DNA of 64,000 nt from Spizellomyces punctatus DAOM BR117 (Eukaryota): the NCBI GenBank assembly GCA_000182565.2, contig KQ257452.1, one strand, 5' to 3'. A program made the position numbers and the translations under genes. Shown here one piece after another: positions 12,376 through 38,328 of the stretch. Numbering within the stretch: position 1 is the first letter of the stretch; every line of letters starts with the position of its first letter. The notes beneath the pieces were generated by a model that was not told where the DNA came from, ran no database searches, and saw only the letters and a list, made by a program, of their open reading frames with translations.

Positions 12376-12465
12376 TTTCAGCAGTTTCTTTAGTGCGGAG
12401 CCGATGGGTATTGGCACTAGCACCCGCACCAGGGATTGAACCGGCGACAACCAGTTCGGAAAAGC
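12376..12465 (-). ncRNA. Fanzor omegaRNA (scaffold ~12465-12391 plus flank-derived guide AAGAAACTGCTGAAA...)
   Basis: Segment between ORF stop and element end is conserved in both copies and resembles the SpuFz1 omegaRNA as remembered; RNA ends inferred. Confidence 0.75.
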
Positions 12466-13448
12466 TAATCTAACTAAACTACGCTACGCTACCGCTGGAA
12501 CACCCCTGCTGAACACCTCTGGTCTACCGTGCCCATCCAACATTGATTGCACGATCGTTAGCATATTACAGGTTGCCAGCGTATCTCGGTTCCAGTAGCG
12601 CATTCTCGACGTCCAGTCTTGCTGCAAACAGTTAGGGTTGGTACAACCCAGCAATCCATGGACTTTTTCAATCTTGCCTTCGCGTCACCGCCAAGGTCTT
12701 GAATGAGGTCATTCTTTGAAGCCTTTCTCGACAAACTCAGATGAGGAACAGCGAGGGCAAACAGATGAGGTCTTGTATTCGTCGAGAAGAAAGCAGTTGA
12801 TCCTGTTCCACTTAAAGAGGGTGCGCCAACCTTTCATCTTTGATGAGGTCTGAAATCTCGCAGTTCGACCGGCATCACTCCAATCACCCATCACAATGGT
12901 AAAGTTCCCAAACTTGTTGCGCATGTTGCTTATGAGGTCTGATTCACTCTTCTGACGGTTTATAAATGCATGCCACTTCCACCGCATGTGGGCAGGATGC
13001 AAATAGAAGTCCTTGCGGCAGTTCCAGTCGGCACGGCGAACGAGGAGATAGCGAGTAAAGTCCATGAGGTTCATCGTCTTGTGAGATGGTATTCGTGATT
13101 CTATGAGGTCAATACCGCCGGCTTTCATCTGCTGCCGTTCTTTTGCAAATCGACGGCTTCCGGTCTCCATGGCTCGCTGGTTGGCAGTGTAGCGAAACGT
13201 ACCATTGCCGTCTTGGCAGTAGAGAATGTCATGCTTGTTTGGGTCGATAACAATGACATTCTCTGCTGCTCGACAAGCAGGTAAGTTTTTCTCCACATAA
13301 AGTGCTGTCACCTCAGCTGTAAGAGTTGTTGCTGACTTTTTCCCACCACTGCGCTTCCCATACTTGTCTGCTTCTGGGTGCTTTAGGTATACAGACACCG
13401 AGGTTCCATCCATGGTGATCGAGCCTTCAAACTGCATACCGCGGCGAG
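12391..13448 (-). mobile_element. Fanzor1 element (Spu-1-like), 5'-truncated, right end intact
   Basis: RuvC-type ORF remnant plus conserved end ...GTGCTAGTGCCAATACCCATCGGCTCCGCAC-TA, shared with the copy ending at 38328. Confidence 0.9.
12484..13448 (-). pseudogene. Fanzor1 nuclease C-terminal half (RuvC I/II/III + zinc finger), two in-frame TGA stops
   Basis: IVIDPNK (RuvC-I), VMGDWS, LDEYKTSSVCPRC (RuvC-II/ZnF), GLLGCTNPNC, WNRD (RuvC-III); TGA at 12709-12711 and 12685-12687; natural stop at 12484-12486. Confidence 0.9.
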
Positions 13449-13486
13449 TGATACAGTGCATCAGATAAGTCATATGCACTGTATCA
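13449..13486. repeat. Perfect 13-bp inverted repeat (hairpin) at the Fanzor/virus junction
   Basis: TGATACAGTGCAT (13449-13461) / ATGCACTGTATCA (13474-13486), 12-nt loop. Confidence 0.9.
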
Positions 13487-13487
13487 G

Positions 13488-13558
13488 CCGGCTTATAATA
13501 TGATATACCCAGCTTATAATATGATATACCCGGCTTATAATATGATATTAATAAGCCG
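13488..13558. repeat. ~3 x 21-bp tandem repeat ending in a quasi-palindrome
   Basis: CC(G/A)GCTTATAATATGATATAC x3; last unit CGGCTTAT...ATAAGCCG is self-complementary. Confidence 0.9.
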
Positions 13559-13874
13559 TATTGAAGTGTTTGCCCAATGCATTGGAGTGTTTCAAAGTGT
13601 TTCAAAGTGTTTCGAGTCTTCCAAGGTGTTTGTCCAAGTCCGGGACTATTGATGAAGGGATGTGCGCATCTACGCCGAAAATTTTCTCTGACATACATGT
13701 AAAGTTTTATGCATCTAATATTTCGCGTGTCCAAACTCCACCTAATTCAAAGTCAACACTGGTTCTAACTTGACATTCACTTCTTCTCAAGACTCCATGG
13801 TTCGTTTCCCTTGGGCGGTTCATTTGGTGATTTTACTTGAGCAAATTCTTGCCACTAGGTTCAAATGCCACACT

Positions 13875-14273
13875 TTATGAAATCACTTTATCTTGGGACT
13901 CCATCTCTCCACCTTCCTTTACTGATGGTACTCGGGAGACCTTCAGTCTCAACACTTTTCGTTGTTTGCGGTAGATTGTGGAAATCTCCATCACTTGGTC
14001 TTCTGTATATCCTGCCTCCATCAGCCCCTGCTTGACGTCATCCACCAAAGCACTTAGCTTCTCCTCTACTAGTGATGCCACATACATATTTGAACCATCT
14101 TCGCCTATGATTGTCCTCACATCCTTCTTAACCATTTTCCTTTCAATTGCCTCCTTTCTACGGCGATTCGTTGTTACGACTGCTTGGTGCATCTCATTGT
14201 CAACTGTGAGTTGGTAGAACCTCTTCATCTCATTTAGCTCTTCTTCACTTGCTCGCCTCATCATTTTCTCCAT
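13875..14273 (-). CDS. Viral hypothetical protein, 132 aa, helical/charged
   Basis: Intronless ATG ORF with upstream TTTATAAAA, inside the viral island. Confidence 0.6.
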   Translation of the reverse strand: MEKMMRRASEEELNEMKRFYQLTVDNEMHQAVVTTNRRRKEAIERKMVKKDVRTIIGEDGSNMYVASLVEEKLSALVDDVKQGLMEAGYTEDQVMEISTIYRKQRKVLRLKVSRVPSVKEGGEMESQDKVIS

Positions 14274-15265
14274 TGTTAATTGCAGCTGTATTCGAATGTT
14301 GTATATGGAATCATTTTTGAAAAGAAGGCTTCGAGCTGGGGAGACCGGTGACCCTCTTTTATAAACGGAAAAGGAACTCTCCCATCTTATCGATATGATG
14401 GCCTTCTTTTATGTCCCATCTGATCCATATGTTTCCTTATGTTTCCTTTGAAGAATAATGATTCTATCGATACTTTCCCTCATATTTCATGTGACCTTTC
14501 TATCAACAGTAACCTTTCGCAAAAAAGGGAAACTAATGGAGATGCTGGAAAAAATCCTAGAACTAGGGCTTTTTCGCAACATGCCCATTTTCGCTCACTG
14601 CTCCACAAAAACAGCTCTAGAATCCTAGCCCTTTTTTTGCCCGGTCTTCTCTACTTTTCAAAAAATTTTCATTTTTTTTTTTCAAAATTGAAATTTGATT
14701 CCATTTGTGAGATTTGACCCGGGAAATGGGCTAGAATGGCTAGGATTCTTGTCTTTCGCTATGTAGGGTATTTTATACTACTAATAAATAAATATATATN
14801 NNNNNNNNNNNNNNNNNNNNNNNNNNNNNNNNNNNNNNNNNNNNNNNNNNNNNNNNNNNNNNNNNNNNNNNNNNNNNNNNNNNNNNNNNNNNNNNNNNNN
14901 NNNNNNNNNNNNNNNNNNNNNNNNNNNNNNNNNNNNNNNNNNNNNNNNNNNNNNNNNNNNNNNNNNNNNNNNNNNNNNNNNNNNNNNNNNNNNNNNNNNN
15001 NNNNNNNNNNNNNNNNNNNNNNNNNNNNNNNNNNNNNNNNNNNNNNNNNNNNNNNNNNNNNNNNNNNNNNNNNNNNNNNNNNNNNNNNNNNNNNNNNNNN
15101 NNNNNNNNNNNNNNNNNNNNNNNNNNNNNNNNNNNNNNNNNNNNNNNNNNNNNNNNNNNNNNNNNNNNNNNNNNNNNNNNNNNNNNNNNNNNNNNNNNNN
15201 NNNNNNNNNNNNNNNNNNNNNNNNNNNNNNNNNNNNNNNNNNNNNNNNNNNNTTCACAAAACAGT

Positions 15266-15667
15266 ATGACGAGTTTCAAGGAATTCTTCAATATCACATT
15301 CAGCGCGCCTACGGATGGCTCTCTTCTTATTCCTACAATGGGCTACAATGCTAACTCGGATGAGGAAAGACGAATCGTAGCAATTGTCTTAGACATCATT
15401 AATTTCATCGTGACAAACCCAGAGAAGAGTCCTTATACGAGGGTTCCTTTTGTTGACAACAAAGAAAAAGTGAGAAAATATGGAGAAGAACTTGACGAAG
15501 TTGGAGAGGAAATCGGTGTTGTTGACATGTTGTTCAGCGTCCATAGTTTTCTGATGGAGTGGATAGCTGAATGCAGTCAGCTAGGGAATCCCGACTGGCA
15601 AGCATATCGAGTAGATTTATGTAGTCTGGAGTACCACTGGGATGGGATTGGAGGATGGCAGGCTTAA
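15266..15667 (+). CDS. Viral hypothetical protein, 133 aa (C-terminal WDGIGGW motif)
   Basis: Intronless ATG ORF with protein-like composition. Confidence 0.65.
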   Translation: MTSFKEFFNITFSAPTDGSLLIPTMGYNANSDEERRIVAIVLDIINFIVTNPEKSPYTRVPFVDNKEKVRKYGEELDEVGEEIGVVDMLFSVHSFLMEWIAECSQLGNPDWQAYRVDLCSLEYHWDGIGGWQA

Positions 15668-15802
15668 GAAAAGTAGAATGGAAGCTGTGGGCATCTGTAT
15701 CGATGATAGCAATGGCCACATGATGTAGAACACGATGTAAAGCGTCATTATTATATAAAGTATCTTAACGTTCACATGTTGGCAGTATTGTATAACTAAA
15801 AA

Positions 15803-16156
15803 ATGTCGTCTGACCAAGAACCTAAACATACAAAGCAGTTCCGATGTGCTTTTTATTCCCAGACTATTTACCGAGCGATAGATGGAATACTCTCTGCGGC
15901 GGATGATGAAGAAGACCATCTCAAGGCTGCACTTGAGGCACTTCAATGGGCGGCTCAACATATTTTCGAATATCCTACACATTTTGAAACTAGTTGGCCT
16001 GGTATGATTCTCTTACTATCTACCACTATAGGAACATATCGTCAAATGCAGCATAAGAGTGAAAAGGAATCATTTGTTGTCGAACAATTAGACTTAATCC
16101 TTCATTGTACTAAGAGTCTATCTAGTTCGATGGATAATGAGGTTGTTGTGTGTTGA
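15803..16156 (+). CDS. Viral hypothetical protein, 117 aa
   Basis: ATG preceded by TATAACTAAAAA; intronless. Confidence 0.55.
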   Translation: MSSDQEPKHTKQFRCAFYSQTIYRAIDGILSAADDEEDHLKAALEALQWAAQHIFEYPTHFETSWPGMILLLSTTIGTYRQMQHKSEKESFVVEQLDLILHCTKSLSSSMDNEVVVC

Positions 16157-16379
16157 ATAGAACTGCGGATGAAACATTAGTTTCCAGACCCGTGCATTGC
16201 TGCACAAAAAGCTGTGTTGGCATCTGTGTTTCAGATGCGTGTGGTTTCTTTTTCGTTTCTTTTTGTGGTCAGTCCAACGAAAGAAGCCATGAAAAGGAAA
16301 GGACTGTATGACCCAATGGGGATACAGTTCTCCATCTGCATCCCCATCTTTTTATAGAGAAAAAAAAGGGAAGCCGCGT

Positions 16380-16694
16380 TCACGCACTTTCCATCCGCAT
16401 TTCTAGAACAAAGAGCCTTTCATTATGATTGTGTCCTAAGAGAACGCAATCCTGCAAGATGGCCAAGTAGCCGGAATTTCGAAAGCAGATTTCATCCAGT
16501 TTCTTCAAGTGGACGATTGACAAAATCTCTTTGAAGATGTGTTCATTCTGGTCTGTTTTCGGAAGAAACAATATGATACGTTTTTTATCTCCTGTCATCA
16601 TACCTCGACAGTACCTCCAGAATTTATCCATGTCACCCTTCACAGCGTCCTTGATGTTCAATACTGAATGACCTTCAATATCCGCGTGTCGCAT
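16380..16694 (-). CDS. Viral hypothetical protein, 104 aa
   Basis: Intronless ATG ORF directly after the fibre gene. Confidence 0.5.
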   Translation of the reverse strand: MRHADIEGHSVLNIKDAVKGDMDKFWRYCRGMMTGDKKRIILFLPKTDQNEHIFKEILSIVHLKKLDEICFRNSGYLAILQDCVLLGHNHNERLFVLEMRMESA

Positions 16695-16746
16695 TCTTAT
16701 CTTGCATAGCTTCTTTTTTAAATGATGGCAAATGAAGTTCCTTTCT

Positions 16747-19700
16747 TTAAGACCCTAATTCCATTACCTCTATAATGGTTACATCTGCGCTTGTGTCCAG
16801 TGCTGCATTTACTGCTGAAAAATTGGTAAAATATGCTACATCAGGAACTAACCCCGACACAATGAATGAGGCATAAATTGTTCTGTTCACTCCAGCATTA
16901 TAGTTAAAATCACTGGAAAAGACTGACGGCATCGAACTGGCATTAGTTCCTAGATACACATTGAGCGTTCCTCCTGCATTATTGGTGCCATGCAAGTTGA
17001 TGGTATAGCGTATCAACGCCCGGCCGGCTGTAGAAACATAGAACGTCTTTGTTCCGCTACCAGTTGTGATTACATCTTTAGTTAGCATTTTGAACACCTG
17101 AACCTTAGGAAACTGTACTTGAGATGACACCCATGCTTGAGTAGCGCAGACCTGTCCGTTGCTATACACAGCACCATTTGAATACAGATTCCCACCTGAT
17201 ACGACATGGGCACCGACCGCAATTCCACCTGCAACAACCAAAGCGCCAGTTGTACTCGATAACGCTGGAGTGGTGCTTTCAACAACGACATTACCTGTGT
17301 TAGGATAAACGTAAATACCTTTTGCTCCCTGAGATTGAAGGCGTACGGCACCAACGTCATTCCTGAGTGTGAGTGTATTAGCGCCTCCATCTACTGTTCG
17401 ATTTGAGCCATTCATAAAAAGAACGGAAGAACCCACGGCCGTCGTTAAATAGTAAATTGGTGCTGCATTCGAACCGAGGTCTACATTCTTGACCTGAATG
17501 CTTCTTAAACCATTTACACTGGTGTTTCCGATGATGACATCTCTATCAAAATAAGCATTTCTGGTTGCTCCATTAAGCGACATACTTCGAATAGATGCGT
17601 TGCTTTGTCCGACATAGAAATTCAGGTCAACATTGTTACTACCAGGCAAATAGGATTGTATAGAACATATATTTTGTGTTGCGTGTGAAAACATGAGGGT
17701 ATTGGTTTGGCCAACACTATAGTTAGTATTTTGGACGGTCATTTGTGCACCAGAAACCCATAGTTTCTTAGCGATTCCTGCTCCACCCTTCACTTGAAGT
17801 GCTCCAGTGATGGCTGATGTGGAATCAGTTATGTCATTTACAACAAGTGTTCCTGTTGATAATGCGGTACTACTGGATATGGTATCCTGCTTTGATGATA
17901 CTGATGTTTGTAGGGTTGCAACGCTTCCTTGCAGTGCTGATATGCTGGGGGCATAGTCGACAATGTTTAAAATGCTTCGTACTTCGATGTCATTTGTGAG
18001 AGTGAATCCTTGGACATCATCTCCCATGAGAAACATATTGCTCATTGGTGACATCGCAGCGAGAGTAGAGAGTAAAGGACTAGCATTTTGCTTCCCTGAG
18101 ATGTCGACATTCATAACTCCTAGAATTGACTTCACCTCTTCAACGGTTTTCGTGGAGAATGATGTAGCAGAACTTCCAACAATAAATGAATTTGCAGATA
18201 TTGCGAGTCCACTGATAGAATCTAGGAGCGGACTCAATGTCTGTTTTGAAGCAATGGCTGTACCTACATAACTCTCGGTTGCTAGTTTTATACCATTTGA
18301 GAAAACATTTCCACCGACATAAAGCGCTTTACTAATTCCAACTCCCCCTTTGACTTGGAATGCGCCAGTTGTTGTGGAAGTACAATCTGTCGTCGTATTG
18401 ATAATAACATTCCCAGATGAGAGAATATCTAATTGAGATGAACTATTTGTAACACCAAATCTCATGTTAGTATTCCATGCCCGCAGGCAGACATCGTTAA
18501 TCTGATCGTTGAAGAAGGCTTGTCCATTCAAAGATGGGGAGAAGAATGTCATGTCACCAGTATTGACATTTCCACCGATGCTACCCCATCCAAAACCATA
18601 GCCAGTCCCTTTTCCACTGGTTACCTTATTACCAACCCACAGAGTCTTCGCAATTCCAACACCCCCAGATACCTGCAAGGCTCCTGATGTCGCAGACGAG
18701 GAGTCTGTAGCAGTCAACACCTTAACTTCATTCGAAATGGATACAATCTGTAGACCTAATCCTAGACCAGATTTTCCTTGGATGTTCATGTCTCCACAGT
18801 CATTCCAAAGTGTAGCGTTGTTCCCGGCTCCATCTGCAGTCCTTGTAGAAGAGTTGAGGAAAAGTAACGCACCATTGCCGCTGTCATTGGCACAACCAAT
18901 GGCTGTGTAGGCATTAACGCCAGACGAAACGTTTCGAGATTGAACCCAGTTTGGAGCATCCACAGAGGAGTTACCAATTACATTTCCTCCAGCATACAAG
19001 TCCTTTGCAACACCTAAACCACCACTTACTAGAAGTGCTCCTGTAGTCAAACTAGTTGACTGTGTGGTATTTGTAATATATGTAATACCAGTATTAGAAA
19101 TCTTTAACACATAACCGACGTTGTTATATGAAGAGTTGATCCCAAACCCACCTGCTGGGTTAGAGCCATCGGCTGAAGAACCTGCTACTCGAAGACCCCA
19201 AGTGATATTCGATGAAGAGTTGACCAGGGACATATATGTTGGATTGGCACCATTAATTACTGTTACATAACCACTAGCCGTAACTGAGGCAAGACTCAAA
19301 TTAGTTGATGTGGTGATGTTGTTCTGTTTACCAGAAAGGAGTGTATTCACGTTAGCATTGGTTGCTATATTGAGGATGCCTTTCACTTGAGTGGAAGTAA
19401 CATTCTCGAACGTAGTCCCAGCAGAAGAATAAAGCCAACTGTCAGGCTGTACCGTCATTGTGTACAGAGAGTTGGTAGCGCTGTTCATTGGTTGCTTCGA
19501 TGCGAGTGCAGTATTAATGGCATTATTGTTATTAGTAACAGTTGTTGATAGTGAAGACAAGGTTTGACTTATTGGAGCGGTGTTATCAATTACAAATTTT
19601 TGAGATGCAACTTCGAGACCTCCGATGTAAGCCATTCCACCGATATATGCATCAGTTGATACTCCTAGGCCGCCACTCACGACCATATTACCTGATGGGT

Positions 19701-22700: not shown

Positions 22701-23049
22701 GGATATCATGACCCTCTTTTGAGTAGACAAGAGGTTGATGCGCAGATATGTCGATTGTGGTCAACTGACTCTCCTCATCAATTTCAAGCCTCTTGTTATC
22801 AACATTTAATCCAATGGATATGACGCCATGTTCATTCATACAAGGTAAGCATTCAGAGGTGGTTTCAACCTCGTTGACTTTAAGTTCACCATTTTCATTA
22901 GATAAATGCTTAAATTCTCCAACATCGAACCCCTTTATCTTGGCTCCAGCATCGAAGCCAACCATTTCGCCTGTCACATATGGAGATAAGAGATTTGTGT
23001 TATCTACGGTATGTAACCCCGTAGAAGTTCTACTATTAATTCCAGACAT
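16747..23049 (-). pseudogene. Viral fibre/spike protein, ~2100 aa, split by a single in-frame TGA (19705-19707)
   Basis: ORFs 19705..23049 and 16747..19686 are in the same frame (GYVF*IDPSGNMVVSGG); beta-spiral-like N-terminal repeats; repeated TSxTTGALxVxGGxGIAKxLYVGG units. Confidence 0.8.
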
Positions 23050-23106
23050 GTTATATTGTAGCTAGGAAGTAAAATTTGAGGAGCTTGGCAAAAGTGCTCG
23101 AGGGTG

Positions 23107-23128
23107 CCCATCTTATCGATAAGATGGG
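23107..23128. promoter_or_regulatory. Perfect 22-bp palindrome CCCATCTTATCGATAAGATGGG
   Basis: Self-reverse-complementary and intergenic; near-copy at 14381-14401; function inferred. Confidence 0.6.
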
Positions 23129-23139
23129 ATGATAAAACC

Positions 23140-26302: not shown

Positions 26303-26344
26303 CTTTGTTTACTGATTGCAGGAAAAAAAAAAATGGAAGATTTT

Positions 26345-26885: not shown

Positions 26886-27054
26886 NNNNNNNNNNNNNNN
26901 NNNNNNNNNNNNNNNNNNNNNNNNNNNNNNNNNNNNNNNNNNNNNNNNNNNNNNNNNNNNNNNNNNNNNNNNNNNNNNNNNNNNNNNNNNNNNNNNNNNN
27001 NNNNNNNNNNNNNNNNNNNNNNNNNNNNNNNNNNNNNNNNNNNNNNNNNNNNNN

Positions 27055-27681: not shown

Positions 27682-27722
27682 GATATTTCCTTACCTTTAT
27701 GTAAAGACAAAGGAAAATTTAA

Positions 27723-28323
27723 ATGTCCTATAAACCACGCCCAATCTTTCCCGTAGGGAAAAAGAAGAGAGATCCTCGTGTTCCACGTGACCTGGCATCA
27801 CTGCCTCTATGTACAACTCTTGTCGCTCCGAGGAAAAGTGGTAAAAGTGCATTAGTCTGCGGTCTGATTGAGGATGTCTATGCTAAATTACACGATCGAG
27901 TCATTATCATGTCCGACACAGTTGAATATGATGCTTCTGTGAAGGTACTGGCCGAAACCACAAAACATAAAAATATCTACTTTACAGACGAGGTTTCCAA
28001 TGCATCCATCGCTAAAATAGTAGAAGAACAGAAGAAAACGCCTGAGAAGTCACTTCTATTATTCATTGACGACGCTGGTGATTCTGCGCAAAGTAAAGAA
28101 CTCAACAAGGAGTTATCGAAACTCTATACAAAAGGGAGGCATTTCAATATAGGAAATATTGTAGCCATCCAGAGTGTAACCGGACAACTTTCATGTAAAA
28201 TGAAGAACTGCACCACTGAGTGGGTGGTGTTTAAAAACAATGCAGAGGACATGAAACTTTCAGCAAAGTTACTTGCTTCCGCCTACAAAGATGATAAAGA
28301 AGTTCTAACATTTCTCACCGAGT
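27723..28323 (+). pseudogene. A32-like (FtsK-HerA) genome packaging ATPase, C-terminally truncated by an LTR
   Basis: Walker A APRKSGKS, Walker B LLLFIDD, KGRHFNIGNIVAIQ motif; the stop codon is supplied by the LTR start. Confidence 0.9.
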
Positions 28324-28923
28324 TGTAGCGGATTTTTTGTTGGTAGACTACGGTAAAGACAACTTGGGTCTCCTAGCAGGTTGTGTGGGTGTCCGTACTA
28401 GGAATCGTAGTCTCCAAATCCTTTCTTTGGGCGTCGGTAGCGACTTGGGGGCGAGAGGCAAGGAGAGTCGGTTAGTTGTGAACCGAGCAGGATTTAGAGG
28501 CTTCGGTACGGGTGATCAGGCCGTTGAAGCGCTCTGTTAGGTTCCTGTTAACCTAAGATTGGAGTTGAGAAGCGAGTTATGGGGATTTTGTGTCGCTACG
28601 GCTTCTGCCCCCGACTTATTTTATTGAATACCTCCTTTTTATACAAGATTCTTGGATAAACTGTTAAACTAAACTAAACTAATGGGTGTCGCTGCACCGC
28701 AACTGATTTATTGGTGGCGGTACCGATCTCTTCCTTTTCCGCACTGGCTCGGGCCTCCACAGGTTGTACGAGGCACGCTGAAATCTAATGCGCCAATTGC
28801 CATTCTCCGAACCGGTTTTTTCGGTCGCGGTAACCCAATCGGTGGAGTTGGTCACGCGATTCGTGCTTCCCGCGTCCGATTTGGGCTTACTCGCGATCTC
28901 TCGAAGACGTCCTCGTCGTTACA
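28324..28923 (-). repeat. 3' LTR (600 bp)
   Basis: TGTAGCG...CGTTACA; 7 mismatches to the other LTR by eye. Confidence 0.95.
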
Positions 28924-28934
28924 TCCCCCCTTTG
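28924..28934 (-). other. Polypurine tract
   Basis: Minus strand CAAAGGGGGGA abutting the 3' LTR. Confidence 0.85.
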
Positions 28935-28980
28935 AAGAGCCAACACACCGGCGCTCCGAGCGGGGGTGTTGGGACGTCAA

Positions 28981-31900: not shown

Positions 31901-34900
31901 TTGTATTTGGCGAGCCACAAAAGAGCTCGGTGATCGGTAATGACCGTGAAAGGCAGGCCTTCGAGGTATGGGCGGAGTTTTCCGAGGCCCCAAATGAGGC
32001 ATCCGGCCTCGAGTTCGACAGGTGGGGCCTTCTTTTCCGAGGTGGTGGTGCCTCGGGAATGGTAGCACAGCGGGCGTTTAGAAGCATCCGGCTGTAACTG
32101 TTCGAGCGTGACATTAAACGCTGTGTAGGAAGCGTCACTGTGAAGGGTGTAGGGGAACCCTTTTCTGGGTGCCGCAAGCACTGGAGCTGTTGTCAGAGCC
32201 TGCTTGGCGGCTGCGAAGGCAGAGTTTCGGGAGTCGGTCCATGAAACTTCACGCTTCGCGACGAATCTGCGCAGACCTTGGTCGGGGCGCTTGCGAGCAA
32301 GGCGTCCGACACAAAAGGGGTCAATGGGCAAGTCGGCCAGCGATGATTGGCGTAGATTGACCGCCGGTAGGTCTGAGGAGCTAGATTTAAGATGTTGCGA
32401 AACCTCAAATCGGGCTCCGGTTGCTGTGATTGTTGGGGCCACTGCCGTGTCAAGCATGGACGGTGAATTGAGCTTTTCAGCTCCTTTCCTTGGGTCAGCG
32501 CGACCCTTTTTAAGGTCTCGATATTCACGAACGCCCTCTTGGATAGCGTCTTGCAGGGGTCGGACGAGTTCCGCGTAGCGAGGGATGAATTGGGCATAGA
32601 ACCCAAGGAGACCCACGAAGGACCATAGGTCACCAATAAATTTAGGTCGTGGCCAATCGACTATGGTTGCGACCTTGTCTGGATCGGTAGCGAGGCCCTG
32701 GGAAGAGGCAACGAAACCGAGGGCCGTGAGCTGGTGAAAGAGCCATTGACACTTGTCGAGCCTTAGGGTGAGTTTGGCCCTGGAAAAGCGGTCGAGCCAG
32801 TCCGCGATGGCATCTAGGGCTTCCGCGGCTGTCTCCGCTCGTGTATGGATATCGTCGACGAAGTTGTTGATATTTCGCCATTTGGAGGGACCCAAGGTGT
32901 CGTCCATCACCCGACAGAAGTGCGAGGGGGCAGTCTTGGGTCCGAAGGGCATGAAAAGTGGTTCGTAGATGCCATCGTGGAGTCTGATCGCGAGCCATTT
33001 GCGTACCGACGTATCAGTGATGGCGATTTGGTAAAATCCTTTGTTTGCGTCACCTCCCGATATGTATCGGAATGGGACTGCAACGATCCAGTTCAGGATG
33101 TCGAGCATGATGGGAAAGGGATATGGATCCCAGGCCATGCAGTCGTTGGCTCGGCGATAGTCGAAGGCTACCCGCGGGGGTTTGTCTGCGTAGCGAATAA
33201 TAACAGGATCGCTGGCGAAGGTTACTTCGGTGGTTCGTTTCCACCTCTGAAGCCCCATCATGGTGTCTCGCTCCGTCTCGAGGGCTGTCCGCTCCAACGG
33301 AGAGTACGACCGTGGCCTCGAAAGGGGTGGCGGAGCCGAGATAAATCGAGGCGCATAAGGAATCTTGGTGTAGTTCCCTATGAGATGACCCTCATAGCTG
33401 AAGGCTTGATGGAAGTGTCGTAGAATGTTGATTAGGGCCCAGACCACGGGTTTGGGTCGTTTGAGATCGACGTGGAAACGTTCCGCGTCTTTTAATTGGG
33501 CTTCGAAGGCCCCTGGAGCCTTCTCTGTAGAGTTGAGGTTCCATTTGTTCCGAAGTGTCTGCCATTCTTCTTCGGAAATGTTCTCTTCGGGGTCCGCGAC
33601 CGAATTATGGGTCGCGGTGGACAGTTTGAGGCCTAACGGGGCCGTTGTGCTAGCTGCGGTGGCATCAAGAGGGTTTTCGATGAGGAAAGTTTGGGCTGCC
33701 ACGCGCGTCTGTCCCGTGATTAACATGGTTAATCTAGACTTCTGAGCTTTGGCTTTGGTCAGCCGTGGCATTGACACATCCTTCATGAATTCACCCTGCT
33801 TGGTTTTGTATGGCGTGCCGCGCATGTGATCGGTATCCAGCTCATCCGTTATGGAGCAGGGGATAAGGATGTCTGGATTCTTGAGCGTCACCGCGAAACT
33901 GGGTAACGGGGGTTCCTGAACCAAGGTTTGGAGTTTCAAATGTCCCAAAACGTCGTTGGCTAGGATGATGAGAGGTTTCCCGTACGCGATGACCCGAAAG
34001 TAGGCGCGGAAAGTCAGGTATTCTCCGCCGCGGCCTCTGAGGGAAGTTTCGAGGCATACTGTCTTGGTAGATGAGATACGTCCACCAATGCCGTTGAAAG
34101 CCATCGTTTCCGCATCCTGCAAATCGGTTTCGGAGAACAGAAGGCCTTGGTACGTGTCGGAAATCAGAGACTCGCAGGCCCCTGTGTCTAGTACCACAGG
34201 TGCCCAGAGCTGCGCGATGACGGCTAGCGTCCAGCAAGGCTGCGTTTGGGTCTTAGTCTGGCTTTTGAGTACATCGCCTAAATCTACTGAGTAGAAGGCG
34301 TTGATAGAAGGCACCGCGATCTCGAAATGGGGCGCGATGTCGTTAATTGTTGCTTCCGTAGCCTTGATCACACTCTCAAAGTGTTCTCTAGTTTTGTCGT
34401 TTTGTGGTTTTGTTGTTTTATTCTGGCGAGCAACTTGTTCGATAGCCAGCATGACTATACGCGTCCGTTCGCTCTCTTCGTGTCTTTGGAGACGTGGATG
34501 GTCTTTAACGTGCCGAAATTTGGGGTTTCCGCGACGATAATAATAGTCTGAGCGAACGATATTGCCTGTCAGGAGAAATGCCACCAGTTGCAGGTTGGCG
34601 TACGCATCAAAGATAACAGGATCTTCAGAGCTCCACATCAAGAATTTCTCGCGCTCGTCGAGCTTTATCCAGGCAAGGAGAATCAAACGAGGGGTACCGT
34701 CTTCTCGGACCTTTCGCAGGATTCGATCCTTGTCAGCTTCGGCTGCGGCAGCGATGTAGAGGTGGTGGGAACTCCACGCGACTGCGTAGGGGTCGTTCCC
34801 GAGGTGCCCGGCGCCTCGCTTCGGTTCTTTGGCGAAGAAGCTGAGCGCGCGGGGGTTGTTGCCCATCATCAGAGCCACTTGCGGGGTGCCCCAGATGATG

Positions 34901-36540
34901 GCTATGTTGTCCCAGACTCGGTCCCAGCCCTGCGTGGGCGTGCGGGGGTCCTCTTCCTTGGTCACCGTGACCTTGGAAAGAGGTGCGGTCATCAAAATTG
35001 TTGATTCCGAGTGCTTGGGTGAATGAAAGAACCCGATGGTGTGGAATCCTTGATTAGCGGCTTCCGTTCTTTCCAGTTCCGAAGCCGAAAAAAGAGTTTC
35101 GGTGGTAGCGGACGTCGAGTCCAGCTCCACTATGTACGCCTTCTTCGATTCCTGTTTGGGTTTCCAACCTGAGGGCATGGGTGCTCCATATGGTCCTTTC
35201 TTTCCATCTTCAGGATCTTTTCGGTTCGGGTTCTGCCAGCAGAAAACATTCCAATGCTTTTTCTGACAGAATTTGCAGGGTGCCGGTGGTTCCTTGTTGG
35301 GGTCCGGAACCATCTTCTGAGGACCATCGCGACCCTTTTCGGGGTTTCCGGTTTTATGCGGAGCCGTCTGCTTAGGGCCTTTGTCGGTTCCGGTCTTTTG
35401 TGACTTCTTCTGAGCTTCTGCAGCACCGCTGTAGCAAGGGTCTCGTTTTCTGGTGTCATCAGAGCCGAAATAAAGGCGCAGGAAGTCTTTTAATTTGGTC
35501 AGGTTCGTGACGTTACAGGATTTGACCATGATTTGGATGTCGCTGGGCAATTGTTCGACTATTAGGTCGAAATGCTGGTCAGCGGGACATTCTATGTTTG
35601 CCCGGTCGCCATAAGCGAGGCGCCGGAGATGAGTTTTGTGGTCGATGAACGCGAGAAAGCTGCGAAATTCTTTGGGGTTCGCATGGCAGCGCACATATTC
35701 GGTTTTGCGCTTGGACTCGGTTAGGGGATCTCGGAACTCTCGAAGCAGTTCCTCTTTCCACCTTTTCCAGGTCCATGAGCGAGTTTCCTGGGCTTCCAGA
35801 GTGTAAAACCAAGCGTCAGCAGGGGTTTTCTCGGCTATCATGGCTGGTAGGAGCTGTACCATCCTGGCATCCGACGTTGCGCTAACGTTTTGAAGAAGTT
35901 GGACTTTGTTAAGCCATTCTTCAACGTCTTGGTTTCTTCTGCCCGTAAACTCGGGTACGTCCTTTGCTTTCAAGGAATCGACCTTGGTGTCGCTGGCCCA
36001 CGGGGCCGCTGGCACTTGGATTGGAGGCACCGCACCTGAAAAACTTGGTTCGGTACGCTCCCTTGGTGTGTCCGCCGTTTCCCACGGGGTTGCGGACCGT
36101 TCTCTTGTAGCTCGTGCTATGGGAGGTTGTTCAGGCAGCGGGCGATGCGCTAGGGCTTCTAAGGCTCGTGCGAGGCGCTCATCCGCCGCTGTCTGACGTT
36201 CGGAAAGCCTATGAAGCTGTTCCGTAAGGTTTTGAGTTGCCAACTGCGTTGCAGCAGTCGAGCGGGCAATGTCTTCTTTTAACGCTGCCACTTCAGAGGC
36301 CATCGTGGCCAAGTTAGGGGCTTCCGGTTCGACGGAAGTGGTCCCTGAACGCCTTGGGCGTGTTGCGGGAGGGACTTCGACGTCCTCCGCAGGACCCTGA
36401 CTACGAGTCTGGATCACAGGTGAGCGGCCTCGCGTTGGTGAGCGTTCGACCGGCATCATTCTCGGTTTCGTGAAGTTCTGTCTCCGAAACGAGAGAAAAG
36501 GTTTCCGAGTAGCTACCTGAGCGGATCTCGGTTTGCGCAA
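28981..36540 (-). CDS. Gag-Pol polyprotein, ~2500 aa, uninterrupted (first ATG ~36459)
   Basis: Gag knuckle CKFCQKKHWNVFC; protease LDTGA; RT PFGPKTAP/FVDD; RNase H LHSDAS; integrase H..H..CETC and DRDSKF; chromodomain FEVEAIVDHR..IRWSGY..DTWEP. Confidence 0.96.
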   Translation of the reverse strand: MRKPRSAQVATRKPFLSFRRQNFTKPRMMPVERSPTRGRSPVIQTRSQGPAEDVEVPPATRPRRSGTTSVEPEAPNLATMASEVAALKEDIARSTAATQLATQNLTEQLHRLSERQTAADERLARALEALAHRPLPEQPPIARATRERSATPWETADTPRERTEPSFSGAVPPIQVPAAPWASDTKVDSLKAKDVPEFTGRRNQDVEEWLNKVQLLQNVSATSDARMVQLLPAMIAEKTPADAWFYTLEAQETRSWTWKRWKEELLREFRDPLTESKRKTEYVRCHANPKEFRSFLAFIDHKTHLRRLAYGDRANIECPADQHFDLIVEQLPSDIQIMVKSCNVTNLTKLKDFLRLYFGSDDTRKRDPCYSGAAEAQKKSQKTGTDKGPKQTAPHKTGNPEKGRDGPQKMVPDPNKEPPAPCKFCQKKHWNVFCWQNPNRKDPEDGKKGPYGAPMPSGWKPKQESKKAYIVELDSTSATTETLFSASELERTEAANQGFHTIGFFHSPKHSESTILMTAPLSKVTVTKEEDPRTPTQGWDRVWDNIAIIWGTPQVALMMGNNPRALSFFAKEPKRGAGHLGNDPYAVAWSSHHLYIAAAAEADKDRILRKVREDGTPRLILLAWIKLDEREKFLMWSSEDPVIFDAYANLQLVAFLLTGNIVRSDYYYRRGNPKFRHVKDHPRLQRHEESERTRIVMLAIEQVARQNKTTKPQNDKTREHFESVIKATEATINDIAPHFEIAVPSINAFYSVDLGDVLKSQTKTQTQPCWTLAVIAQLWAPVVLDTGACESLISDTYQGLLFSETDLQDAETMAFNGIGGRISSTKTVCLETSLRGRGGEYLTFRAYFRVIAYGKPLIILANDVLGHLKLQTLVQEPPLPSFAVTLKNPDILIPCSITDELDTDHMRGTPYKTKQGEFMKDVSMPRLTKAKAQKSRLTMLITGQTRVAAQTFLIENPLDATAASTTAPLGLKLSTATHNSVADPEENISEEEWQTLRNKWNLNSTEKAPGAFEAQLKDAERFHVDLKRPKPVVWALINILRHFHQAFSYEGHLIGNYTKIPYAPRFISAPPPLSRPRSYSPLERTALETERDTMMGLQRWKRTTEVTFASDPVIIRYADKPPRVAFDYRRANDCMAWDPYPFPIMLDILNWIVAVPFRYISGGDANKGFYQIAITDTSVRKWLAIRLHDGIYEPLFMPFGPKTAPSHFCRVMDDTLGPSKWRNINNFVDDIHTRAETAAEALDAIADWLDRFSRAKLTLRLDKCQWLFHQLTALGFVASSQGLATDPDKVATIVDWPRPKFIGDLWSFVGLLGFYAQFIPRYAELVRPLQDAIQEGVREYRDLKKGRADPRKGAEKLNSPSMLDTAVAPTITATGARFEVSQHLKSSSSDLPAVNLRQSSLADLPIDPFCVGRLARKRPDQGLRRFVAKREVSWTDSRNSAFAAAKQALTTAPVLAAPRKGFPYTLHSDASYTAFNVTLEQLQPDASKRPLCYHSRGTTTSEKKAPPVELEAGCLIWGLGKLRPYLEGLPFTVITDHRALLWLAKYKGENRKLLRWALNLSYWSEWMTIVHKPGRFHIVADTLSRLLGAETLLCSTGTEIWVSERKGRRPRTPPAGPAPSSTLADAIFRLALQPALITAIRAGLTGPLHPIAQQARTLLWETSPDTYTTADTRFLQDWQRADNLLWHRFSVSEDLWRLYVPPACTPEVRKLFHEGGGHFGFERTYARAAAQVWWPKMAQDFRKHCAGCETCQRSKRVPQLIPGLLKPIPPAPGRWTVITTDFVTKLPLTSRGYDAFWLIACKCSKRIHVWPLKSTATAIQVAELFIERYVPLHGIPETIISDRDSKFTSRFWQEVCKNLKINQELTTAYHPQGDGQSERDNATVLQVLTTMVNTRLDDWDTFLPVAEFIINDTVHEATKMTRFRMDLGYEPHNPLADIVERPSETRNADAEELCKHLGDLNILIRDLMIEAQDSQKRYYDLSRRHLEFRRGDKVLLSTKNLAGYESKIAPKWLGPVTVTDCNPLRDNYELKLPDKMRRLHPWFHISKLRPYQKPVDAETEEKVAEAQAEDSDASDGEFEVEAIVDHRTRRGKRQFRIRWSGYPPHEDTWEPEEALTEASEALEEYWRSRAPTSALVEDSLVVSLAGDAPEDTAYASDHQCFAVYPDDSSRDNHALSPERKPVSRGLPHQSRTPHQASRSRLRASELSKSAGDDLKRTPLHAPPLFSSSTAHDLLPLHTHSASQTPSIDTETKTSISNTMNTDLRGQAGVSVPSTYMSGYPWEEDSGDFEAEGMLDRLGVAIATWVHSWVHQLRTNPNAPLQTPGHEFWLGVDAPKPYAVGQPLTNHIADPYSKATDGGEAAVGIVADAKKPGKRGRPAPCAAWLDRGVPQHEAGSRKTAPFTDWPNDDAHEFASAVIEAARTVLLRTANAAEASARLTRPRHHEHAEYHFRATNLKRAAETFTALYVTRTGPDVTPGTIVRTATDQIWFCCNVGGRASIIWVVNQDADEADPTDPVPTW

Positions 36541-36596
36541 GAGTTTCGGTACGACCGAATAAGGTTTTCAGCTGAATTTGAGAGGGGAAGGCGGTT

Positions 36597-36614
36597 CGTC
36601 GCGCTTCTCCACCA
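36597..36614 (-). other. Primer-binding site, probably tRNA-Ala
   Basis: Minus strand TGGTGGAGAAGCGCG directly after the 5' LTR, complementary to a ...UCUCCACCA tRNA end. Confidence 0.75.
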
Positions 36615-37214
36615 TGTAACGGATTTTTTGTTGGTAGACTACGGTAAAGACGACTTGGGTCTCCTAGCAGGTTATGTGGGTGGCCGTACTAGGAATCATA
36701 GTCTCCGAATCCTTTCTTTGGGCGTCGGTAGCGACTTGGGGGCGAGAGGCAAGGAGAGTCGGTTAGTTGTGAACCGAGCAGGATTTAGAGGCTTCGGTAC
36801 GGGTGATCAGGCCGTTGAAGCGCTCTGTTAGGTTCCTGTTAACCTAAGATTGGAGTTGAGAAGCGAGTTATGGGGATTTTGTGTCGCTACGGCTTCTGCC
36901 CCCGACTTATTTTATTGAATACATCCTTTTTATACAAGATTCTTGGATAAACTGTTAAACTAAACTAAACTAATGGGTGTCGCTGCACCGCAACTGATTT
37001 ATTGGTGGCGGTACCGATCTCTTCCTTTTCCGCACTGGCTCGGGCCTCCACAGGTTGTACGAGGCACGCTGAAATCTAATGCGCCAATTGCCATTCTCCG
37101 AACCGGTTTTTTCGGTCGCGGTAACCCAATCGGTGGAGTTGGTCACGCGATTCGTGCTTCCCGCGTCCGATTTGGGCTTACTCGCGATCTCTCGAAGACG
37201 TCCTCGTCGTTACA
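36615..37214 (-). repeat. 5' LTR (600 bp)
   Basis: TGTAACG...CGTTACA with perfect 7-bp terminal inverted repeats. Confidence 0.95.
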
Positions 37215-37440
37215 TTAGGATGACATGTATGAGTTCTGATTGGTTGCAAATGGTGCAATAGGCTGACAAATAGTTTAGGATGATGTGGGTGAGATCTGAT
37301 TGGGTAGTTAGGATATAGCATTTGTCAGCCCCTTTGTCTATAAAAAGAGGACCTCTCTGAGGCCGCTCAAAGGGAGAACAAGTAGTAACCAAGTCTTCCC
37401 TAGTTTTCTGTTGTCTTCTTGTCCCTGCTAGCCTGTTACA
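37215..37440 (+). mobile_element. Truncated LTR of a second, unrelated retroelement family
   Basis: Two CTGATTGG boxes, 11-bp inverted repeat GGCTGACAAAT/ATTTGTCAGCC, TATAAAAAG, and an end ...TGTTACA exactly where Fanzor homology begins. Confidence 0.6.
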
Positions 37441-38328
37441 TACCTGCTTGTCAAGCAGAGAATGTTGTCGTTATCAACCCAAACAAGTGCAACATTCTCT
37501 ACTGCCAGGACAGCAATGGTACAACATTTTGCTACACCACAAACCAGCAAGCCATGGAGACAGGCAGCTGTCGGCAGCAAAAGGAACGACAGCAGATGAA
37601 GAAGGAAGCGGGAATGGACATCATAGAATCATGAATACCATCTCACAAGACAATGAACCTCAGGGACTTCACTCACTACCTTCTCATTCACTGCGCAGAT
37701 TCAGATCATCACAAGGAATTCTACTCCCATCCCGCCCACACATGGTGGAAGTGGCATTCCTTCATCAGTCAGCAGCGAAGCGAATCAGACCTCATAAGTG
37801 CCATGCACAACAAATACAGTGAAAACTTTACCATTGTGATGGGTGATTGGAGCAATGCCGGTTGAACTGCGAGATTTCAGACCTCATCAAAGATGAAAGG
37901 TTGGCACACCCTGTTCAAGCGCAACCACATTGATTGTTTTCTTCTTGATGAACACAAGACCTCATCTGTTTGCCCTCACTGTTCATCCTCTGAGTTTGTC
38001 GAGAAAGAATTCAAAGAACAACCTCATTCAAGACCTTGGCACCATCACGAAGGCAAGATGGAAAAAGTCCACGGATTGCTGGGTTGTACCAACCCTAACT
38101 GTTTGCAGCAAGCCTGGACGATGCGCTACTGGAACCGAGATATGCTGGCAACCTTTAATATGCTGACAATCGTGCAATCAATGTTGGATGGGCACGGTAG
38201 ACCAGAGGTGTTCAGCAGGGGTGTTCCAGCCGTAGCGTAGATTGGTTAGATTAGCTTATCCGAACTGGTTGTCGCCGGTTCAATTCCTGGTGCGGGTGCT
38301 AGTGCCAATACCCATCGGCTCCGCACTA
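37441..38328 (+). mobile_element. Fanzor1 element (Spu-1-like), 5'-truncated and heavily mutated, right end intact
   Basis: PACQAENVVVINPNK..VMGDWS..LDEHKTSSVCPHC..GLLGCTNPNC..WNRD..PAVA* (stop at 38240); TGA at 37632 and 37863; end ...GGCTCCGCAC-TA. Confidence 0.9.

Follow-up and report, generated by a model that had tools for sequence, protein, structure and literature searches.

Fanzor ends, virus genes and a Ty3/Gypsy element in one island

The window analysed here, i.e. the whole stretch of 64,000 nucleotides from contig KQ257452.1 of Spizellomyces punctatus DAOM BR117, contains an island of 25.9 kb (12391-38328). Its layout resembles that of a composite element, with two inverted element copies, their outer ends intact, placed around a cargo. 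The island and its immediate flanks comprise the following features:

12376-12390, minus strand: left omegaRNA guide (AAGAAACTGCTGAAA on the minus strand), host flank
12391-12467, minus strand: left arm terminus with TA (12391-12392), terminal inverted repeat and omegaRNA scaffold of about 75 nt
12487-13449, minus strand: left Fanzor1 pseudogene, residues 316-638 only, two in-frame stops, both at Arg positions
13450-13874, no strand: AT-rich junction segment with a palindrome of 12-nt perfect arms (13449-13486) and short tandem repeats (13488-13548)
13875-14400, minus strand: 132-aa ORF (13875-14273) with a TATA-like box upstream and a motif, probably part of the virus
16747-23049, minus strand: two fibre-like ORFs of 979 aa (16747-19686) and 1114 aa (19705-23049)
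25049-26302, minus strand: major capsid protein, double jelly-roll, 417 aa, assigned by homology and model
26836-27681, minus strand: 281-aa ORF, by its position a candidate minor capsid or penton protein, with an N run (26886-27054)
27723-28323, plus strand: A32-like packaging ATPase (PF04665, E 3.6e-7), cut after residue 201
28324-37214, minus strand: Ty3/Gypsy chromovirus, 8.9 kb, with LTRs (28324-28923 and 36615-37214) and one ORF (28981-36459, 2492 aa)
37215-37437, no strand: segment of 222 nt from LTR to right arm, with a TATA-like box
37440-38237, plus strand: right Fanzor1 pseudogene, residues 370-638, two in-frame stops, heavy CpG decay
38252-38328, plus strand: right arm terminus with omegaRNA scaffold, terminal inverted repeat and TA (38327-38328)
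38329-38343, plus strand: right host flank with TG (38329-38330) and the right omegaRNA guide, a 15-mer unique in the window

The arms were recovered in a repeat search of the window as six collinear inverted matches (12391-13267 versus 37454-38328). Gapped blastn aligned 12391-13286 with 38328-37438 at 83.8% identity over 906 columns, and 753 of the 882 aligned columns were identical in the MAFFT alignment. The terminal 18-mer TAGTGCGGAGCCGATGGG occurs exactly twice in the window, at 12391-12408 on the plus strand and at 38311-38328 on the minus strand (0.01 expected), which is why both edges end in TA. Repeat search, blastn and 18-mer agree and confirm the edges 12391-13286 and 37438-38328 as inverted copies of the 3' part of a Spu-1 Fanzor1 element, each ending with omegaRNA scaffold, terminal repeat and TA; inverted Fanzor right ends finishing in TA had been described in the preliminary description. 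The identical inverted 18-mers at 12391 and 38328 correspond to the terminal repeats of a Spu-1 element, both of right-end type. A Spu-1 left end, in which the 5' region of the gene lies behind the repeat, is absent from both arms, and tblastn with 30 proteins recovered no Fanzor 5' halves in the window. No third copy of the 18-mer was present in the window within three mismatches, and a 12-mer of the terminal repeat matched only at chance level inside the Gypsy element and nowhere else between the arms.

The two omegaRNA scaffolds have remained intact, with 2 differences in 77 positions. Each is predicted to fold into two stem-loops, with -33.1 kcal/mol (z -3.5) on the left and -32.5 kcal/mol (z -2.4) on the right. 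A tRNA gene was considered for the scaffold on account of its T-arm-like appearance and was rejected, as the tRNA scan of the window was empty; the Rfam scan of the window gave no match either. According to Saito et al. 2023 (PMC10432273), the 14-15 nt that follow the scaffold serve as the guide. The left guide 15-mer had no second match in the window when up to two mismatches were allowed. No reads with the omegaRNA guide were seen in the RNA run examined, and a presumed small-RNA run (X21) had no reads placed on 11400-28400.

The virus between the arms is a truncated polinton-like (MELD-type) fragment consisting of a morphogenesis module and fibres only. Its capsid protein is 68% identical to 'hexon [Powellomyces chytrid fungus MELD virus 5]', and the AlphaFold model (pLDDT 70, pTM 0.74) had its best Foldseek matches in PBCV-1 Vp54 (E 2.9e-16, TM 0.62), Sputnik and PRD1 P3. 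No capsid relatives were found in IMG/VR viral contigs. The 1114-aa ORF matched the avian adenovirus fibre N-terminal family (PF06536, E 2.1e-5), and adenovirus-like fibres have been described in Powellomyces MELD viruses (Starrett et al. 2021, PMC8502044). For the first 209 aa of the 281-aa ORF there was no Pfam match. The packaging ATPase is interrupted by the Ty3/Gypsy element; its closest relatives are 227-241 aa long, and their C-terminal tails had no match anywhere in the window. The 132-aa ORF is without a Pfam family. The palindromic motif CATCTTATCGATATGATG occurs only at 14383-14400 and at 23109-23126, upstream of a fibre gene (0.08 expected). A TATA-box motif tried as a common virus promoter was discarded, since its two matches within one mismatch were not above chance; the right-hand TATA-like box (~37340) lies outside these two matches.

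No Pfam family of a replicase or an integrase was detected in the 13 island ORFs scanned, the Ty3/Gypsy polyprotein excepted, and an N run of 453 nt (14800-15252) could conceal little. Virus terminal repeats were not found at the inner ends of the arms, where the best inverted local score was 28 versus 27 for shuffles. The unique virus part had about single- to double-copy depth in a DNA run, and almost no RNA was placed on it in one RNA run (X15, of which about 6% was read). The island thus does contain a virus, as the preliminary description stated, in the form of a capsid, fibres and an ATPase, yet what remains is a truncated fragment beside an 8.9-kb Ty3/Gypsy element. The further proposal that an omegaRNA protects a provirus finds no support in this cargo: with neither replicase nor integrase, no terminal repeats, a truncated ATPase and almost no RNA in the run examined, it is not a viable provirus to protect.

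The Ty3/Gypsy polyprotein carries RT, RNase H, integrase and chromo domains in a single uninterrupted ORF of 2492 aa. Its LTRs match over about 600 nt and differ at seven positions, six of which fall within about 93 nt (28328-28416). The element has no target-site duplication and its two flanks are unlike; therefore, either these flanks were not neighbours before its arrival or the assembly was mis-joined there. The segment between its LTR and the right arm had no significant match elsewhere in the window.

Lineage and age of the two arms

Fanzor1 proteins of full length comprise about 633-638 aa, and the arms are fragments of members of this family rather than whole members. The left pseudogene aligned to SPPG_07727 (638 aa) with 276 of 324 residues identical (tblastn, 13449 to 12487, minus strand) and to the SpuFz1 chain 8gkh with an E value of 8.6e-138. 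The right pseudogene shared 212 of 269 residues with SPPG_07727 (tblastn, 37440 to 38237, plus strand) and was 87.1% identical to SPPG_02771, a gene elsewhere in the genome, over 249 aa. When 20 Fanzor C-terminal sequences were placed in a tree, SPPG_02771 came out as sister of the right arm (support 100/99) and the left arm fell outside this pair, which contradicts an inverted duplication in place. The two arms were 77.0% identical to each other at the protein level in their common region. Among the copies listed in a comparison of 23 S. punctatus proteins, the left arm was 84-87% identical to eight others, and the right arm was closer to four copies than to the left arm. In sequencing-run data, contigs of other copies part from the window exactly at 13448.

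Nucleotide differences between the arms numbered 31, 32 and 64 at codon positions 1, 2 and 3, and owing to this third-position excess part of the divergence is taken to have arisen with both lineages under selection. Decay is also unequal. The right arm retains 5 of ~25 CGN codons for Arg relative to SPPG_02771, and 20 of its 32 differences from that protein replace Arg by His, Gln, Cys, Trp or a stop; the left arm retains 27 of 33 relative to SPPG_00355. The observed/expected CpG ratio was 0.53 in the right arm and 0.87 in the left. The arms are different Spu-1 sublineages that differ in age, and not a matched pair. Independent Fanzor insertions had been raised as a caveat in the preliminary description, and both the tree and the identities point the same way.

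The CpG decay of the right arm stops short of its terminus. In the outermost 165 nt all ten aligned CpG sites were kept, versus 5 of the 38 sites in common with the left arm over the inner 600 nt. All six CpGs of the right scaffold were likewise kept, whereas the coding part retained 12 of 43 (Fisher p 0.0013). This retention hints that the end was preserved for a function, something for which a dead relic would have no use. Gene conversion from the left arm into the right terminus found no support: about 215 nt in from its end the right arm still carries the two-residue deletion of the SPPG_02771 type, and the arms also differ by a 5-nt indel at ~100 nt.

The reconstructed empty site

Spu-1 elements have terminal inverted repeats of 30-33 nt and putative TA duplications, and upstream of their left ends a CA is conserved (Saito et al. 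2023, PMC10432273; Bao and Jurka 2013, PMC3627910); the TAM of SpuFz1 is 5'-CATA (PMC10432273). The repeats and the TAM had been given correctly in the preliminary description, according to which removal of the island yields a TAM directly followed by the left guide. Positions 38327-38330 read TATG, i.e. CATA on the minus strand as claimed, and 12371-12390 is the reverse complement of AAGAAACTGCTGAAAATAAG, so that the reconstructed site is arithmetically right from the flank letters. The minus-strand order is canonical as well, running CA-TA-repeat, Fanzor 3' part, omegaRNA, repeat, TA and guide, and the conserved CA upstream of a Spu-1 left end has its counterpart here in the minus-strand CATA (38330-38327). 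Given this order and the intact scaffolds, the island-free site would by the published rules be a valid target of the left omegaRNA, with Fanzor supplied in trans.

The arms and their TA are far beyond chance, yet any Spu-1 right end would be expected to have both. The TA flanks are therefore uninformative on transposition of the whole unit, since the TA would be there anyway. The sole feature beyond this guaranteed end structure is the TG at 38329-38330, and the TAM match thus rests on two bases. Within the host flanks of the window, 118 of 1632 TA dinucleotides were followed by TG (0.072); the preliminary description had put this chance at roughly 1/16. The chance that at least one edge passes the TAM test is about 0.13, and this second figure applies if either edge counts. 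At the other edge the mirror test fails, where the site reconstructed for the right omegaRNA has TTTA and not CATA. The TAM and guide match is accounted for by the normal end structure of Spu-1, in which TA follows the right end and the guide starts in the flank, together with a TG that may be there by chance.

No empty allele was seen in sequencing runs of the same organism label. The left flank was present in three sequencing-run rows, all from one sample and none of them listed as RNA, and among the reads and contigs listed none joined it to non-arm sequence; read placement covered 11400-28400. Nothing in these data shows the unit moving as one, or 12390 and 38329 as former neighbours. A possible association of Fanzor with other capsid copies was addressed through the two further S. 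punctatus capsid paralogs, SPPG_08707 and SPPG_05090. Judged by locus tags and contig sizes, SPPG_04925 and SPPG_05193 are the annotated Fanzor genes closest to SPPG_05090, while SPPG_08707 lies on a contig of 151,846 nt without any annotated Fanzor. This check is weak because unannotated relics like the present arms would be missed.

Origin of the island

With a little more confidence than doubt, we regard the island as a transposable-element nest that was built up and rearranged in place, and not as one mobile self-protecting unit. In an intergenic stretch of a genome of the Spizellomyces punctatus type, two Spu-1 (Fanzor1) elements, unlike in sublineage and age, would have entered TA sites in separate events, their right ends facing outward, and both would later have lost their 5' halves and left ends. 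The cargo between them is a polinton-like (MELD-type) fragment and an intact Ty3/Gypsy chromovirus, whose unmatched flanks point to a deletion or recombination that may have removed the rest of the virus. The modules left intact in the arms, terminal repeat and omegaRNA scaffold, are those for which no Fanzor gene in cis is needed, and by analogy with 'ghost' Spu-1 loci the omegaRNAs of the arms could still be made and be used by the Fanzor of intact copies elsewhere. We infer both this order of events and the continued omegaRNA activity. Three observations count against a nest. The far-side CA matches canonical Spu-1 left ends, with an accidental chance of 7-13%; both arms are cut on the inner side at similar depth (residues 316 and 370), which two unrelated truncations would explain by coincidence alone; and the CpGs of the right terminus were spared despite the age of this arm.

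That a single Spu-1-type unit of 25.9 kb is, or once was, delimited by the two outermost repeats appears rather unlikely. Such a unit could have arisen as a composite transposon, or as a Spu-1 with cargo in which an inverted right-end segment took the place of the left end, and it would have been mobilised in trans by the putative Spu-1 transposase. Its left omegaRNA (guide AAGAAACUGCUGAAA), together with a trans-acting Fanzor, would cut the island-free CATA plus guide and so retain the unit. Consistent with this, the terminal 18 nt are identical and inverted, and the left and right repeats of Spu-1 are alike by definition; as at canonical and ghost loci, CA-TA is found on the side away from the Fanzor/omegaRNA arm that is better preserved; and both scaffolds are intact, the right terminus having escaped the CpG decay of its coding part. 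The Spu-1 ends of 134 ghost loci work without a cis Fanzor and ghost omegaRNAs are active with SpuFz1, and Spu-1 loci with extra genes between the repeats have been published (PMC10432273), 11 of them alongside 42 Fanzor loci, with Ty3 among the additional genes; these cargo loci fit a nest as well. Against one unit stand the lack of a second copy and of an empty site, with the virus part at about single- to double-copy depth, and the unlike lineages and ages of the arms, for which reason it would at best have been pieced together from unrelated relics. Moreover, the interior is rearranged, with a Gypsy element without duplication and a lost ATPase tail, which is most easily explained in place; the mirror test gives TTTA, not CATA; the cargo is no viable provirus; and the evidence specific to one unit amounts to two bases. 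Of the composite whose omegaRNA cuts the empty site, as first described, the canonical order and the intact scaffolds thus hold, whereas the arms proved unmatched and the interior rearranged. It is decidedly unlikely that the 26-kb unit with two right ends is a single Fanzor-associated element whose cargo was copied back or kept and whose right-terminus CpGs are a footprint of selection.

In bacterial IS-bounded composite transposons (Tn10/Tn5), movement of the whole unit is proven by multiple copies and unit-spanning duplications. The island shares with them two inverted copies of a small element around unrelated cargo and intact outer ends; unlike in that type, its TA ends would be present regardless, and neither a second copy nor an empty site is known. 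For IS200/IS605 elements, the TnpB nuclease with its omegaRNA cuts the element-free joint, i.e. TAM plus guide-matching flank, and thereby retains the element. This cutting logic carries over to the reconstructed site of the island. In contrast to IS200/IS605, the nuclease would come from other loci, and excision, cleavage or repair of Spu-1 in its host is not known to have been reported.

The arms are 79-87% identical to SPPG Fanzor proteins, and the island shares with Spu-1 the terminal repeat, the TA flanks, a right-end scaffold with two predicted stems, a putative guide in the flank and the CA-TA opposite; like the ghost loci, it has no working cis Fanzor gene (Bao and Jurka 2013, PMC3627910; Saito et al. 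2023, PMC10432273). It differs in that both ends are of right-end type and from different sublineages, with ~890 nt of inverted Fanzor 3' sequence in place of the 30-33-nt left repeat and gene start, and in its size of 25.9 kb compared with about 2.1 kb for Spu-1 and about 0.55 kb for ghosts. The cargo has the capsid, fibre and A32 ATPase of chytrid polinton-like/MELD viruses and, unlike these, is without replicase, integrase, terminal repeats and ATPase C-terminus (Starrett et al. 2021, PMC8502044; Bellas and Sommaruga 2021, PMC7805220). An integrated polinton-like virus in S. punctatus has been published already and was counted as one element (PMC8502044/PMC7805220), to which the present data add the two further capsid paralogs.

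An assembly artefact is a highly doubtful source of the island. The contig would be mis-joined inside the high-copy 8.9-kb Ty3/Gypsy element, and its halves would stem from different loci: flank, left arm and virus fragment on one side and the 222 nt, right arm and flank on the other, with no island at all. The missing duplication of the Gypsy element and the clustering of its LTR differences at one end are in line with a mis-join. In the DNA run, the depth over LTR-bearing sequence exceeded that of unique sequence many times over, and the bin 27843-28400, which holds 77 nt of LTR, had a depth of about 39 versus about 7 for the virus part. The window contains two N runs and so represents a scaffolded draft, and at least 16 listed single positions in the virus part differ between the DNA runs and the window. 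However, recombination between two real Gypsy copies yields the same picture, and the Gypsy element is complete with its one long ORF. It is barely credible that the arms belong to the virus as its terminal inverted repeats, or are an in-place inverted duplication, so that the virus genome would include the Fanzor ends. Long inverted repeats are common at the termini of polinton-like viruses (PMC7805220), and the arms measure ~890 nt. Against this, the tree places the right arm nearer to SPPG_02771 than to the left arm; identity between the arms is only 85%, with an excess of differences at third codon positions, whereas the virus ORFs between them stay open for up to 1114 codons; and, in a weak comparison from two word-based searches, the capsid contigs of relatives (Spizellomyces 'palustris', 22 kb; Powellomyces, 6-25 kb) came from species without a Fanzor match.

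If the island were one unit, it would be the first eukaryotic element with an RNA-guided nuclease seen to carry and hold large foreign cargo. As a composite, it would mean that large cargo, even viruses, could travel with Fanzor systems and have its inheritance biased by them, which would bear on the open question of Fanzor's use to its host elements. Read as a nest, the locus shows that dead Spu-1 copies retain intact modules of omegaRNA and repeat, and that chytrid polinton-like viruses end as fragments in transposon nests. It also illustrates that a neat match of TAM and guide can arise free from the normal end structure of an element. The sharp boundary of CpG decay in the right arm offers a small, testable lead on selection, or on the limits of methylation, at omegaRNA modules.

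Inverted Fanzor ends at the edges of the island

The island at 12391-38328 is bordered by two 3' parts of Spu-1 Fanzor1 elements, the left arm (12391-13286, minus strand) and the right arm (37438-38328, plus strand). A repeat search of the window returned six collinear inverted pairs between 12391-13267 and 37454-38328, and blastn joined 12391-13286 and 38328-37438 in a single gapped alignment with 83.8% identity over 906 columns. In a MAFFT alignment of both arms, 753 of 882 aligned columns were identical; 89 transitions, 40 transversions and 23 gap columns were counted. The terminal 18-mer TAGTGCGGAGCCGATGGG was present exclusively at 12391-12408 (plus strand) and 38311-38328 (minus strand), with 0.01 occurrences expected. 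The inverted alignments and this common 18-mer agree with the preliminary description of both edges as inverted Fanzor right ends finishing in TA. The minus strand at the right edge reads CATA-GTGCGGAGCC, the right flank beginning with TG, and the left flank is the reverse complement of AAGAAACTGCTGAAAATAAG. The flanks, joined after removal of the island, would read CAGCAGTTTCTT-TA-TGAGCAGC. The neighbouring genes are a left-flank gene at 9.2-10.6 kb and an F-box/LRR gene at 38.4-39.6 kb. The CATA at the right edge, the left-flank or guide sequence and all other sequence statements made previously were correct.

Among the 19 longer relatives of the Fanzor-like ORF at 12709-13698 (minus strand) were ten named proteins from S. 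punctatus DAOM BR117, and the ORF matched the solved SpuFz1 chain 8gkh with an E value of 8.6e-138. In tblastn searches with SPPG_07727 (638 aa) the following gene remnants were aligned:

13449->12487, minus strand: left Fanzor, residues 316-638 only, 276/324 identical, two in-frame stops
37440->38237, plus strand: right Fanzor, residues 370-638 only, 212/269 identical, two in-frame stops

Neither a Fanzor 5' half nor terminal repeats beyond the two arm ends were found in the window. At 13448 exactly, the contigs of other genomic copies part from the left arm. Where the left Fanzor gene breaks off (13449-13548), a perfect palindrome of 12 nt, spaced by 12 nt, precedes short tandem repeats; palindrome and tandem repeats may represent a repair scar or the virus terminus. 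Two further partial Fanzor genes, SPPG_09012 and SPPG_08957, are apparently located on the same contig, judged by its length of 1,895,877 nt, and are absent from the window.

Origin and age of the two arms

In a maximum likelihood tree computed from 20 C-terminal sequences, SPPG_02771 and the right arm were sisters (support 100/99) and the left arm fell outside this pair. SPPG_02771 is placed elsewhere in the genome because the window does not contain its N-terminal half. In a comparison of 23 S. punctatus proteins, the arms were 77.0% identical to each other over their common region, the right arm was 87.1% identical to SPPG_02771, and the left arm showed 84-87% identity to the eight other copies among those listed. 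The differences between the arms were distributed over codon positions 1, 2 and 3 as 31, 32 and 64, and the excess at the third position indicates that part of the divergence predates the death of the copies, under purifying selection. Judged by their sequences, the arms are thus two unrelated relics of separate origin. Independent insertions, previously mentioned as a caveat, are borne out by the tree, the identities and the codon positions, which also exclude that the arms arose by inverted duplication in place or as terminal repeats belonging to the virus.

The arms also differ in age. Relative to SPPG_02771, 20 of 32 amino-acid changes in the right arm were replacements of arginine by His, Gln, Cys, Trp or a stop, and only 5 of ~25 CGN arginine codons survive. 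The left arm kept 27 of 33 arginines compared to SPPG_00355. The observed-to-expected ratio of CpG was 0.53 in the right and 0.87 in the left arm.

Guide match and omegaRNA modules

SPu-1 was described as an element of ~2.1 kb that contains a single 633-aa ORF, has terminal inverted repeats of 33 bp and is flanked by putative TA duplications (Bao & Jurka, PMC3627910). For S. punctatus, the text of Saito et al. (PMC10432273) gives 42 Fanzor loci, 19 of them at full length, along with 134 gene-less 'ghost' loci, Spu-1 repeats of 30 nt and a CA that is conserved upstream of the left repeat. According to the same text, the omegaRNA consists of a scaffold of ~75 nt and a 14-15-nt guide extending into the flank, SpuFz1 depends on the TAM 5'-CATA, with cleavage abolished by mutation of any base, and works with ghost omegaRNAs, and 11 Fanzor loci enclose further genes between the repeats, including Ty3/Gypsy. 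Together the two texts bear out the terminal inverted repeats and the CATA TAM given in the preliminary description. In insect-virus Fanzor1 elements of the TIR/TSD type the duplication is described as part of the scaffold (Yoon et al.), which fits the start of the guide after TA.

Given these published end features, the island read on the minus strand shows the canonical Spu-1 order CA-TA-repeat ... Fanzor 3' part-omegaRNA-repeat-TA-guide. With their guides, the putative omegaRNAs would span 12376-12467 (left, minus strand) and 38252-38343 (right, plus strand). A TAM followed by a guide match at the empty site is a property of every canonical or ghost Spu-1 locus, and at the reconstructed site the two bases TG (38329-38330) alone decide it. 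Of the TA dinucleotides in host sequence of the window, 118 of 1632 (0.072) were followed by TG. The occupied junction has ACTA at the TAM position. At the other edge the reconstructed site offers TTTA to the right omegaRNA, so that the mirror test fails; the chance that at least one of the two edges succeeds is ~0.13.

The right arm (37438-38328) shows a sharp boundary of CpG decay. Its inner 600 nt have 5 of 38 CpG sites in common with the left arm, 22 having been lost on the right via transitions, compared to 14 of 21 in the outer 300 nt and all ten aligned sites in the last 165 nt, which comprise the omegaRNA scaffold and the terminal repeat. The two 77-nt segments of scaffold plus repeat differ at 2 positions, against 125/786 in the coding part (Fisher p 0.0006), and kept 6/6 CpGs, against 12/43 (p 0.0013). 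This pattern could come from selection on the omegaRNA/repeat module, as in ghost loci, from a limit of methylation or from conversion through other copies. Retention of the island by its omegaRNA does not explain it, since in the reconstructed site the right omegaRNA finds no valid TAM.

In the RNA run X15, thousands of 60-nt reads covered 12427-12472 (depth ~405), nearly all in one direction. They matched only the 45-nt scaffold core, continued into unlike sequence on both sides and carried two fixed differences, at 12436 and 12438. They probably derive from other loci, possibly as ghost-type omegaRNA precursors.

The support for a composite, self-retaining unit is limited to the CA dinucleotide, the truncation of both arms at a similar depth and the shielding of the right terminus. 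As the arms have separate origins, two separate insertions would have been needed to assemble such a unit, and we regard it as doubtful.

Virus fragment, Ty3/Gypsy element and assembly of the locus

The 417-aa ORF at 25049-26302 shared 68% identity with the protein 'hexon [Powellomyces chytrid fungus MELD virus 5]'. Its structural model (pLDDT 70, pTM 0.74) resembled the double jelly-roll capsid proteins of PBCV-1 (E 2.9e-16, TM 0.62), Sputnik and PRD1, and a 1114-aa ORF contained an adenovirus fibre N-terminal match. The palindromic 18-mer CATCTTATCGATA(T/A)GATG, a candidate virus promoter or operator motif, was present only at 14383-14400 and 23109-23126, each time upstream of a virus gene, which links the surroundings of the 132-aa ORF with the virus. 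The virus genes belong to the chytrid MELD/polinton-like group as presented by Starrett et al. (PMC8502044). The text of Bellas and Sommaruga (2021, PMC7805220) counts one integrated element in S. punctatus, whereas two further capsid paralogs were found in this species, SPPG_08707 (93%) and SPPG_05090 (91%); relatives also occur in Spizellomyces 'palustris', Powellomyces, Phlyctochytrium and Gaertneriomyces. The remaining features are:

27723-28323: A32-type ATPase
28324-37214: intact Ty3/Gypsy chromovirus, 2492-aa ORF
28324-28923 and 36615-37214: LTRs of the Ty3/Gypsy element, ~600 nt

The provirus assumed earlier is real as regards its genes and incomplete as a copy: the scanned island ORFs contained no replicase or integrase families except those of the Ty3/Gypsy itself, the inner ends of the virus copy had no inverted similarity, and the ATPase ends at residue 201, the closest relatives having 227-241. 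The missing tail had no match anywhere in the window.

Read depths were summed from a ChIP library of 38-nt reads (DNA run) and from ~6% of one RNA run. DNA depth was ~3.4 on the one left-flank bin, mostly ~4-15 (mean ~7) in the virus part, about twice the flank bin, and ~100-570 in the arm-bearing bins, which are repeats. Reads of X16 and X1 (DNA runs) showed near-fixed single-letter differences from the window at at least 16 listed places in 13891-24802 and none in the 745-nt contig of the left flank; these may reflect errors of the assembly, a different strain or a further, nearly identical copy. RNA depth was almost zero over 13.7-27.8 kb, which says little, as it stems from only one library in which the flank was just as silent. 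An island-free joint was seen in neither the DNA nor the RNA run.

The Ty3/Gypsy chromovirus, with RT, RNase H, integrase and chromo domains, interrupts the ATPase. Its flanks have no target-site duplication in common, and six of the seven LTR differences lie within 93 nt (28328-28416), which hints at two copies that recombined or at a mis-join. Together with the absent ATPase tail, these features indicate that the sequences left and right of the element were previously not contiguous. Two Gypsy copies may have recombined, deleting the remaining virus and whatever lay beyond. With either recombination or a mis-join, the former adjacency of 12390 and 38329, implied by the preliminary description, is without basis. 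An assembly mis-join, to which the same missing duplication and clustered differences point, seems quite improbable to us.

Spu-1 repeats around Ty3 and other genes are a locus type already in print; neither the form with two right ends nor the virus cargo is mentioned in the published text covered here, supplements aside, which might list the locus. With modest confidence we favour a transposon nest in which two independent Spu-1 relics lie tail-out and enclose both a truncated fragment of a polinton-like virus and a Ty3/Gypsy element. At least one rearrangement would have reshaped the whole nest, in which the omegaRNA/repeat modules are still intact.
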